Positions 7,985 through 10,902 of a stretch of DNA of 10,902 nucleotides are shown one piece after another; positions within the stretch are counted from its first letter, which is position 1; each line of letters opens with the position of its first letter. Source of the stretch: Microcoleus sp. SU_5_3. GTDB lineage: Bacteria; Cyanobacteriota; Cyanobacteriia; Cyanobacteriales; Microcoleaceae. The position numbers and the translations under genes were made by a program. Location of the stretch: assembly GCA_012030835.1 (NCBI GenBank), contig JAAUVD010000242.1:1-10902 (forward strand). Reading direction: 5' to 3'. The notes beneath the pieces are model-generated. The model was not told the DNA's origin, ran no database searches, and saw nothing but the letters and a program-made list of their open reading frames with translations.

Positions 7985-8088
7985 ATTAGTCATTGGTCAT
8001 TAGCTATTAGTCATTAGTTATTAGTTAACAATGCCCAATGCCCAATGCCCAATGCCCATGCCCAATGCCAATTCCCAATTCCCTACTG
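7985..8088. repeat. 104-bp array of heptamer repeats: ATTAGTN x6 followed by CCCAATG-family x8 (STRR-like)
   Basis: Strict 7-nt periodicity: attagtc attggtc attagct attagtc attagtt attagtt aacaatg cccaatg cccaatg cccaatg cccatg cccaatg ccaattc ccaattc cctactg. It sits between the stop of 7663..7983 and the ATG at 8090. Confidence 0.85.
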
Positions 8089-8884: not shown

Positions 8885-8959
8885 ACAATTTTAGATTTTG
8901 GATTGAATCCAAGATTTAGGCACGGGGATTAAAAAATTCTAGACTAAATTTGGTAAGAC

Positions 8960-9022
8960 GTAGGGTGCGTCAGTTGAGAAACCTGAACTTGTCGTACTAA
9001 ACTCTAGACTGACGCACCTTAC
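8960..9022. repeat. Single-copy inverted-repeat element: 14-bp arms gtagggtgcgtcag / ctgacgcaccttac (13/14 complementary) around a 35-nt loop
   Basis: Read directly from the sequence. The arms share the GGTGCGTC/GACGCACC core with the 74-bp tandem units at 10706+. tctagact occurs at 8938-8945 and again at 9003-9010, just before the right arm. Confidence 0.7.
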
Positions 9023-9083
9023 AAGCTACACGATCGCCATTAATGTAATACAATATAGTTATTAAAGTAATTACAGCAAATAT

Positions 9084-9338
9084 TTGCTACATTCGCCCCA
9101 AACAATCATGTTGCCCCACGAGTTGCAAAACATTGTCCCCGAACCGACGCCAACGGCCGAAATTTTTCAGAGACACCAAATTGTCCGCGAGTTTTACGAC
9201 GAAGTTAAGTATCGTCAAGAATTTGAACTTTATTGTCAATGGTATTATGCTACAGCCAAGCAACATCAACAGGAATTGCAGAAAATGCAAGGAGATTTAA
9301 ACATCTTCGCTTGGTTCCGTCGCGGACATAAAAATTAA
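9084..9338 (+). CDS. Small hypothetical protein; 84 aa from a TTG start at 9084, 76 aa if the first ATG at 9108 is the real start
   Basis: ORF with no recognisable motifs, in an intergenic context. The stop is followed by caattgacagtt, the same heptamer motif that follows CDS 5884..7434. Confidence 0.35.
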   Translation: MLHSPQTIMLPHELQNIVPEPTPTAEIFQRHQIVREFYDEVKYRQEFELYCQWYYATAKQHQQELQKMQGDLNIFAWFRRGHKN

Positions 9339-9546
9339 ACAATTGACAGTTAAATTAAATCGAAATCCTCAGACAGTCCTTCAATCTGTTGAAACAATCA
9401 GAAATCGTCTTAAAAATCCCCCTCAAACCTTCAACAGTTATAGAACCGATTTGACATCTTTTCTTGAACAAGAAAGGCAGATCGATCGGCCGTCTGGCAT
9501 AAGTCAATGGTAAAATTTTTCAAGAAATGGATTTACCGAAATTTTT

Positions 9547-10656
9547 ATGAATAGAAAATGGTCGAGGAAAAACTTATTTCGATCGCACAACTTCTGGATA
9601 ATTGTGCTAGTTGTGGTCATCTCTAGGATTGCCTTACATTCGCAGCTTGACGAGTGGATTGGCGTAGCGCCACCTTCAGCACCAATCGAACGTCTCGCAA
9701 TCGTCACCACCATGACGCGGGAAGCGCAACAAATTTTCTACCGGCAAACTCCAACGATCGAACCCAAGCAAACCTTCTTTAAAGTCTGTCAAACAAAGGA
9801 AAAGCTGAACGATACCTTAATTATGTTTGGATGCTATATGACCAACGGTAAATCCGGCAAAATTGCGATTCAGTCGATTACAGACGATCGATTTCAAGGC
9901 GTGATGGAAGTGACAGCAGCCCATGAAATGCTCCATGCCGCTTACAATCGCCTCAGTCCATCGGATCGCGACAAGCTAACACCCCAACTCAAACAAGCTG
10001 CTTTGCAAATCAAAAACGATCGCTTGTCTAGAATATTGAAGGAATACAAGCAAAAGGATATTGCTTTGTATGTTAACGAATTGCACTCGTATCTGGGGAC
10101 AGAACTTGGCTATCTCGGCGATGTCGAACTCGAAAAATACTATCAGCGTTACTTTCGCGATCGCCAACAAGTGGTAAAGCTAGCCGATCGATCTCAAGAG
10201 AGCGTGCGAAAATTAGATGAGAAATCCCAGCAACTCAAACCTGAAATTGAGACATTAGAAGCAAGTCTCGCACAAACCAAGCAAACAATCAAGGAGCACG
10301 ATCTCGAACTCGGATCGAAGCAACGCAATCTAGATGCACTGCAATTGGATTTAATCCGTTTTAAGGAACAAGCTGAAGAATCTTACCGACAGGGTAACGG
10401 CTCTCCAGAAAAGGTGTTTCAGTTTGAACAAAAGAAATCTGATTACAATCAAAAAGTGCAAGAATTTAACGATCTAGTGCGCCAAAAGAAGGAGCGTGTT
10501 GCTGGTTTTCAACAGCAATTCGATATTTACAAGCAGAAAGTGAACGATTACAATGCAATTGCTCGTGAAGAAAAAGCCCTCTTCACCAATCTCAAAGCTA
10601 CCCCACCAGCCAAGCCCGAAGCCCCAGCCGGCGATGATTCCCATCTTGCCAACTGA
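9547..10656 (+). CDS. Membrane-anchored hypothetical protein with HExxH motif (HEMLH) and long C-terminal coiled coil; Pro-rich tail
   Basis: 369 aa. The N-terminal TM segment is FWIIVLVVVISRIAL. TAAHEMLHAAY could be a zinc-metallopeptidase-type HExxH. Residues ~200-340 are heptad-rich charged sequence. The tail is ATPPAKPEAPAGDD. Confidence 0.6.
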   Translation: MNRKWSRKNLFRSHNFWIIVLVVVISRIALHSQLDEWIGVAPPSAPIERLAIVTTMTREAQQIFYRQTPTIEPKQTFFKVCQTKEKLNDTLIMFGCYMTNGKSGKIAIQSITDDRFQGVMEVTAAHEMLHAAYNRLSPSDRDKLTPQLKQAALQIKNDRLSRILKEYKQKDIALYVNELHSYLGTELGYLGDVELEKYYQRYFRDRQQVVKLADRSQESVRKLDEKSQQLKPEIETLEASLAQTKQTIKEHDLELGSKQRNLDALQLDLIRFKEQAEESYRQGNGSPEKVFQFEQKKSDYNQKVQEFNDLVRQKKERVAGFQQQFDIYKQKVNDYNAIAREEKALFTNLKATPPAKPEAPAGDDSHLAN

Positions 10657-10705
10657 TATCATGTCGGGTAGATTACCCTTTTATAATCTCGTAAATGTAG
10701 TAAAT

Positions 10706-10902
10706 GTAGGGTGCGTCGCCACGAACAACTTTCGTTACTATTGGGAAATATCCTAGCGACGCACCATACCAATTATCATGTAGGGTGCGTCGCCACAAAC
10801 AACTCTCGTTACTATTGGGAGATCTCCTAGCGACGCACCACCCCAATTATCATGTAGGGTGCGTCGCCACAAACAACTCTCGTTACTATTGGAGCATCGA
10901 TC
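10706..10902. repeat. Tandem array (2.7 copies, runs off the window edge) of a 74-bp unit, each carrying the inverted repeat ggtgcgtcgc ... gcgacgcacc
   Basis: Unit starts (gtagg) fall at 10706, 10780 and 10854. Units differ at about 6 of 74 positions spread across the unit. The perfect 10-bp arms extend to 13 bp with one mismatch and are separated by a 37-nt loop. The array is preceded by gtaaatgta x2. Confidence 0.8.

Follow-up and report, generated by a model that had tools for sequence, protein, structure and literature searches.

The analysed stretch of DNA, hereafter the window, comprises 10,902 nucleotides of contig JAAUVD010000242.1 from Microcoleus sp. SU_5_3. HIP1 (GCGATCGC) occurs five times in it, against 0.14 expected, and tandem heptamers (CTTCTTC, AATCTAA, TAGTTGA, ATTAGTC and CAATGCC) lie in intergenic DNA at 1-52, 5847-5878, 7501-7538 and 7985-8083, resembling the short tandemly repeated sequences of filamentous cyanobacteria. 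The HIP1 enrichment and the frequent heptamers fit a filamentous cyanobacterium. An 887-aa ORF on the minus strand (1676-4339) encodes a full-length homologue of the major vault protein, with Vault repeats and an MVP shoulder domain (Pfam E values of 1.6e-63 and 7.5e-52). More familiar from eukaryotes, the major vault protein is an unusual find in a cyanobacterium. The spacer between the vault protein and PfkB genes contains two repeats, a direct one of 32 nt (copies at 4500-4531 and 4645-4676, with 91% identity and a distance of 145 bp) and one of 18 nt, AAA(C/A)AAGAACGATCGCCC, whose copies are 24 bp apart (4674-4715); positions 4670-4721 gave a weak, sub-threshold Rfam match to the Plastid-psbA-2 3' UTR (E value of 5.2). 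Within the ORF at 454-1428, whose protein has no Pfam match, a 15-nt repeat (GCTGTGACTGCTCCT, 694-764, 4.7 copies, 85% identity) translates into a 5-residue periodic peptide.

Near the end of the window, a plus-strand gene (9547-10656) encodes a 369-aa coiled-coil hypothetical protein without a Pfam match, which is 100% identical to NJS12219.1 of Microcoleus sp. CSU_2_2 and to NJK68978.1 of Microcoleus sp. SU_5_3 (via P0180). A tandem array begins 50 nt past its stop codon. Tandem Repeats Finder (TRF) placed this array at 10704-10892, with a period of 74, 2.6 copies, 94% matches and no indels. Unit 1 (10706-10779, plus strand), delimited by sequence reading, TRF and repeat comparison, consists of the left arm GTAGGGTGCGTCGC, which includes a GTAG head (10706-10719), an A+T-rich loop of 36 nt (10720-10755), the right arm GCGACGCACC (10756-10765) followed by ATAC up to 10769, and a 10-nt linker, CAATTATCAT, ending at 10779. 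Unit 2 (10780-10853, plus strand; arms at 10780-10793 and 10830-10839) has the same architecture and is 92% identical to unit 1, in agreement with the divergence of about 8% estimated previously; the (N)TAC at the far end of the units is degenerate, and in unit 2 the reverse complement of the far-side GTAG reads GGGG. The 74-bp unit is thus a 64-nt GTAG-to-NTAC element plus a 10-nt linker, repeated head-to-tail. Unit 3 (10854-10892, plus strand) is partial, retaining the left arm and about two-thirds of the loop up to the end of the array called by TRF.

The sequence-only reading had described at least 2.7 units of 74 bp, cut by the window end, with near-perfect arms around a 37-nt loop. The tandem arrangement and the hairpin arms hold, and the loop is 36 nt by sequence reading. 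The truncation is doubtful: the match to the array unit is lost over the last ten bases of the window (10893-10902, agcatcgatc), and the partial third unit may therefore be the true end of the array, ten bases being too few to decide.

A solitary hairpin of the 'CAG' subtype, recovered by an inverted-repeat search at 8960-9022, lies in the spacer between a DUF218 gene and the next ORF. As had been noted, its arms are 14 nt long (GTAGGGTGCGTCAG, 8960-8973; CTGACGCACCTTAC, 9009-9022); they differ by one mismatch and enclose a 35-nt loop. Both this element and the array are intergenic and lie just 3' of co-directional genes. The core GGTGCGTC was found seven times in the window against 0.14 expected, a count that none of 200 shuffles reached, and the 12-mer GTAGGGTGCGTC six times with up to two mismatches, against 0.41 expected. 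GTAG stands directly beside the stem at 8960, 10706, 10780 and 10854, while the heads on the opposite strand read GTAA, GTAT and GGGG. The window hairpins gave fold z-scores of -3.8 to -5.1 as RNA and -3.5 to -5.8 as DNA, unit 1 being predicted to fold at -27.8 kcal/mol (z-score of -5.1) and -18.4 kcal/mol (z-score of -5.8), respectively; the predicted RNA folds agree with the earlier expectation that transcribed copies would form stable stem-loops. The units contain no inner CGCACC/GGTGCG palindromes and their loops measure 35-36 nt, a geometry that departs from that of canonical REPs and REPINs.

The window elements belong to a dispersed repeat family

We scanned reference genomes, one per species, with the arm pattern GTAGGGTGCGTC-N20-50-GACGCACC. 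GTAG was included in this pattern because a looser arm pattern applied to viral contigs had returned 73 stretches, nearly all of them chance matches in G+C-rich DNA. The genome scan yielded at least 120 stretches, and after removal of palindromic double matches the matches listed contained 145 elements, mostly GTAG...CTAC hairpins of about 64 nt from filamentous cyanobacteria. Approximately 125 of these 145 were of the long-loop type, from Microcoleus, Tychonema, Phormidium, Lyngbya, Anabaena, Nostoc and their relatives. The distance between the searched cores was sharply peaked at 40-41 nt, and the stem was prolonged past the core by at least two Watson-Crick pairs (AG/CT, GC/GC, TC/GA, AC/GT or TT/AA) in 115 of the listed elements. 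The two dominant subtypes, ...CAG/CTG... (64 listed elements) and ...CGC/GCG... (36), are exactly those found in the window. The 3' tail read CTAC in 66 and NTAC in 90 of the 145. Twenty of the listed elements, which come from Gammaproteobacteria, Planctomycetes and Brocadia, have the same head and take the classical form of a short-REP doublet, such as GTAG-GGTGCG-TCTCA-CGCACC present twice in inverted orientation.

The family recurs within genomes as well as among them. Several Microcoleus genomes, including that of strain CSU_2_2 (L119, L120 and L134), each carry the element on at least three separate contigs, and the solitary element shares 84% identity with a copy in L120. At no fewer than ten other loci the cyanobacterial element forms tandem arrays, with periods of 70-114 and 1.9-4.7 copies. 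Both the proposal of a dispersed repeat family and that of its additional amplification in tandem are thereby supported, and the window elements are copies of a REP/REPIN-like family that is widespread in cyanobacteria. A blastn search of plasmids with the window array gave no match, and the array unit was not found in metagenome contigs by an exact/degenerate scan.

The sub-variant present in the window comes with a leader, cccttttataatctcgtaaatgtagtaaat (10673-10705, plus strand). Including about 30 nt of this leader, it recurs at L085 and L119 with 93% identity over 92-97 nt, the wider flanks being unrelated. Beside element copies at L119 (160-235) and L085 (7060-7100) lie further repeats, namely a GTAGTGAGGA...TCCTTACTAC hairpin and a shared module, ATATCATGTCCNGTCNATTACC/GATACCAAATCCGGGTT, which is also present at positions 10647-10670 of the window; several repeat families appear to be nested together. 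At two other loci, L082 (1681-2442) and L130 (6592-7518), small toxin-antitoxin cassettes lie between paired GTAGGGTGCGTC elements, a RelE/ParE-like protein with an antitoxin in one and a DUF5615-like with a DUF433-like protein in the other. This bracketing is probably a by-product of elements filling consecutive short spacers. An analogy to integron attC sites was considered for these loci and rejected: the GTAGGGT...ACCCTAC ends occur on both strands, their polarity is opposite to that of RYYYAAC...GTTRRRY, and no integrase was seen.

Arrays of the same type flank RAYT genes in Microcoleus

A motif search identified a REP-associated tyrosine transposase (RAYT) gene in a planctomycete locus (L074), where it is bracketed by GTAGGGTGCGTCCACGACGCACC REPs. 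Its product shares about 41% identity with E. coli RayT. The homologues of this protein in cyanobacteria, about 183 aa long, make up a conserved family named 'REP-associated tyrosine transposase' by NCBI. The cyanobacterial genes are flanked by GTAGGATGCGTTA short REPs in Kovacikia (L195) and Gloeocapsa (L194), by GTAGGGTGCGTTAGCG short REPs in inverted pairs in Floridanema (L196) and Dolichospermum (L197), and by a long-loop element, GTAGGGTGCGTGAC-37 nt-GTCACGCACCCTAC, in a member of Aerosakkonemataceae (L198). In two Microcoleus genomes, arrays of GTAGGGTGCGTCGC units with periods of 70-83 bp stand on both sides of the RAYT gene. At L199, the gene P0124 (10001-10561) is preceded by three 70-bp and followed by at least 3.5 83-bp GTAGGGTGCGTCGC...GCGACGCACC units; at L211, on a 701-kb contig, arrays of 71-bp units are present in 3.1 copies upstream and 5.4 copies downstream.

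P0124 scored 175 bits on NCBIfam NF047646 (cut-off 80), matched E. coli TnpA-REP (PDB 4ER8) with an E value of 4e-38, and contains an HUH motif and a YIHYNP tyrosine motif; judged by its sequence, it is a bona fide RAYT. Since no RAYT gene is present in the window, its units are linked to RAYT by way of congeners and of a sibling MAG. Microcoleus sp. SU_5_3 has a RAYT, NJK66831.1, that belongs to the P0124 90% cluster. When reverse-complemented, the window units align without gaps to the RAYT-flanking units, with a loop of 36 nt in both; the identity of the loops is weak but above chance (16/36, p ~0.03). Furthermore, among the matches listed to the Microcoleus RAYT, 80 metagenomic RAYT loci (47-57% relatives) were inspected, and 69 of them contain a GT[AG]G 12-mer at least twice, mostly with GTAGG(A/G)TG(G/C)G heads, which explains the occurrence of the same head in several phyla.

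The long-read contig L211 also carries, at 758-1116 and 18744-19923, a tandem array in which a small palindrome (AAGGGGG...CCCCCTT) recurs 9.2 times with a period of 39 bp, and very long arrays of heptamers, with 17-35 copies each. In Anabaena sp. UHCC 0451 (L109, 7250-8000), a second, distantly related RAYT of 172 aa with NHIH and YIKDNP motifs has a different REP, GTAGGGGCAATCCCCCCGTGGTTGCCCC, repeated upstream. As this RAYT has a REP of its own, at least two RAYT/REP pairs exist in one genus.

A probable RAYT-dependent origin of the array and the solitary hairpin

Together, we consider it likely, with a probability of about 0.85, that the array and the solitary hairpin are REP/REPIN-type repeats of filamentous cyanobacteria spread by RAYT, the array being a tandem cluster of them. 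One element consists of a GTAG head, a G+C-rich stem of 10-14 bp (GGTGCGTC extended by AG or GC), a loop of about 36 nt that is rich in A+T, and the arm in inverted form; because this arm often ends in CTAC, the GTAG-stem can be read on both strands. A single-copy HUH/Y1 nuclease, the RAYT, would recognise and spread the family by binding the GTAG-tagged hairpin on single-stranded DNA and by cutting and rejoining it without creating a target-site duplication. Data on RAYT binding to, and cleavage of, the single-stranded repeat at GTAG come from E. coli only, as cited in PMC3733652 and PMC6006769, and mobilisation of window-type units by the Microcoleus enzyme is put forward here as probable. 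The array is a tandem cluster in which the units are repeated along with a little adjoining DNA, and it would have followed a single insertion 3' of the coiled-coil gene. Its growth most likely proceeded by local duplication, whether through slippage, through unequal recombination between hairpin units or through RAYT processing.

A bolder version of this reading is that the symmetric GTAG...CTAC element of about 64 nt, with one stem of 10-14 bp and a loop of about 36 nt, constitutes a distinct, previously undescribed REPIN architecture of filamentous cyanobacteria, in which the constant loop is a structural requirement (for example, for a RAYT dimer on both GTAG ends) and the arrays, both those beside the RAYT gene and satellites like that of the window, are functional rather than by-products of duplication. 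If so, the arrays might be source copies for dissemination, regulators of RAYT, or RNA 3'-end structures. We regard this version as rather unlikely as a whole. Two features deviate from canonical REP geometry, the loop with its constant length of 36 nt and the direct arrays that bracket RAYT, and we assign a modest probability to their being functionally meaningful. The string GGTGCG is absent from the text of PMC3733652, and string searches of the text of the searchable literature for the arm and for GTAGGGTGCG returned unrelated primers only. As GTAGGGTGCG was not found there in the present context, the long-loop family of Microcoleus and the arrays that flank its RAYT genes are apparently undescribed by sequence.

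Alternative explanations

Next in standing to a RAYT-spread repeat is an element kept by the host, in which repetition reflects function: an mRNA 3'-end stabiliser or terminator, an NsiR1-like array of tandem small RNAs, or an array of protein-binding sites. The position of both loci just downstream of co-directional genes and the stability of the predicted RNA hairpins agree with such a function, as do the secondary roles of this kind that are established for REPs and BIMEs of E. coli (PMC3733652). One Nostocales copy, moreover, occupies a locus that is conserved between species, its flanks being identical in L105, L124, L161 and L189. Against this, a search of the window with Rfam 15 found no family at 8900-10902 even at E<=10, and the NsiR1-like array was dropped as a candidate. 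Neither promoter-like nor terminator-like sites are enriched, the stems are not followed by a run of T, and conservation of the loop sequence is poor. A host function would also leave unexplained why the same units flank a RAYT gene.

The orthologous site speaks against a conserved host function as well. The GGTGCGTC element is absent from the orthologous intergenic site of ten PH2017 MAGs of Microcoleus (90% identity at the protein level). The orthologous spacer (L201-L210, about 5110-5640) is instead occupied by another GTAG-headed hairpin family (GTAGTTGCGCTTYAGCGCTCTTT...), present in three copies. L204 and L206 have, in addition, a polymorphic insertion of a G+C-rich palindrome there (GTGGGATGGGCGTCCCGCCCGTC...), and the length of the spacer therefore varies (370, 447 or 528 bp). 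Given the absence of the element from ten relatives and the presence of other repeats there, the window array is lineage-specific and the spacer is a hot spot for repeats. A host-selected RNA or DNA element is unlikely as the primary explanation; as a secondary role it is possible, and any host-level effect, for example through binding of a protein or through a hairpin at an RNA 3' end, is putative.

The sequence-only reading had left open whether the repeats are MITE-like or REP-like. A classical MITE is a deletion derivative of an insertion sequence that retains terminal inverted repeats and is moved in trans by a DDE transposase, leaving target-site duplications. The 14-bp terminal inverted repeats, small size (about 64 nt), dispersal and lack of coding capacity would suit a MITE, but none of 48 symmetric elements has a border direct repeat of k>=4, and repeats of k=2-3 occur at the control level. 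In 39 of the 48, base pairing extends no further than the GTAG/CTAC border. This border pattern without duplications is consistent with transposition of the Y1/HUH type and speaks against a DDE-type MITE. The tctagact sequence, which had been thought to flank the solitary element as a duplication, occurs 14 nt upstream of the left arm (8938-8945) and again at 9003-9010; the second copy is inside the element, overlapping the loop and the right arm, so that the pair is not a target-site duplication. All-against-all clustering of 1,014 ORFs from 120 listed loci uncovered no recurrent linked transposase, only common families (SUMF1-like proteins, response regulators and ABC proteins); no parent insertion sequence was found, and the sole gene found bounded by the arms encodes a Y1/HUH RAYT, not a DDE transposase. 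A MITE is accordingly very unlikely, and of the two labels REP-like is the one that survives, given the GTAG at the start of the arms, the missing duplications and the units flanking the Microcoleus RAYT.

A CRISPR-like or degenerate CRISPR array, for which a regularly spaced, partly palindromic repeat might be mistaken and which had already been argued against, can be dismissed almost with certainty, since the whole 74-bp unit repeats at 92-95% identity with differences spread over its entire length, and therefore without unique spacers, no cas-like gene was found in the window, nor any Cas domain in a domain search of it, and the family consists mostly of single dispersed copies.

Comparison with known systems

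As REP/REPIN-type repeats probably spread by RAYT, the window elements find a place in a known system, and a conspicuous repeat is explained without a new kind of system being opened. What is added is a clearly bounded family of cyanobacterial repeats that has two subtypes, a long loop of constant length and RAYT genes bracketed by direct tandem arrays, in the ecologically important genus Microcoleus. Such arrays break short-read assemblies, and annotation may mistake them for CRISPR or MITEs. Furthermore, the GTAGGGTGCG head is common to Cyanobacteria, Planctomycetes and Gammaproteobacteria, where it is joined to very different hairpins, and thus offers material on substrate recognition by RAYTs.

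MITEs such as Nezha of cyanobacteria are likewise small, non-coding and dispersed in intergenic DNA, with terminal inverted repeats. Different from the window-type elements, which lack target-site duplications and are associated with a Y1 transposase gene, they derive from insertion sequences with a DDE transposase and generate such duplications.

The REPs and BIMEs of E. coli with their RayT (TnpA-REP, YafM; 4ER8) share with the family described here a GTAG head beside a G+C-rich hairpin, extragenic and dispersed units that are clustered (BIMEs), and a Y1/HUH transposase whose single-copy gene stands among repeats of its own kind. In E. coli the REP loops are short and successive REPs of a BIME point in alternate directions, whereas the Microcoleus elements have a loop of about 36 nt and form direct tandems. 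Unlike an E. coli REP, the Microcoleus-type element often has GTAG at both ends, in the symmetric form GTAG...CTAC.

The REPINs of P. fluorescens SBW25 are similar in another way, each being a dispersed hairpin unit of about 60-110 nt made of an inverted pair of GTAG-tagged ends. In this strain, REPINs also form ordered tandem clusters of near-identical units that include flanking sequence, and clusters adjoin RAYT genes (Bertels & Rainey 2011, PMC3116915). A REPIN consists of two REPs, each with a small palindrome, whereas the cyanobacterial elements have no inner palindromes. Inner palindromes are present in the gammaproteobacterial and planctomycete relatives with the GTAGGGTGCGTC head (20 doublet-like elements among the matches listed). 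As these same-head relatives are doublets and the cyanobacterial element is not, the latter is a structural variant.

In cyanobacteria themselves, the GTAG-tagged REP families GTAG-12, GTAG-15 and GTAG-16 have been described (Di Nocera et al. 2013, PMC3733652). They are palindromic repeats of Anabaena, Nostoc and Cyanothece, and REP units reiterated in tandem with flanking DNA are reported in the same article, much as in the window. Cyanobacterial TnpA-REP subclasses, whose genes are flanked by GT[AG]G REPs, are another match (Quentin et al. 2018, PMC6006769), and the loops of canonical REPs are given there as 2-5 nt. The unusual feature of the window family is its long loop of constant length. 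In its higher-order arrangement, the window array is the same kind of cluster as the BIMEs of E. coli and the tandem REPIN clusters of P. fluorescens.
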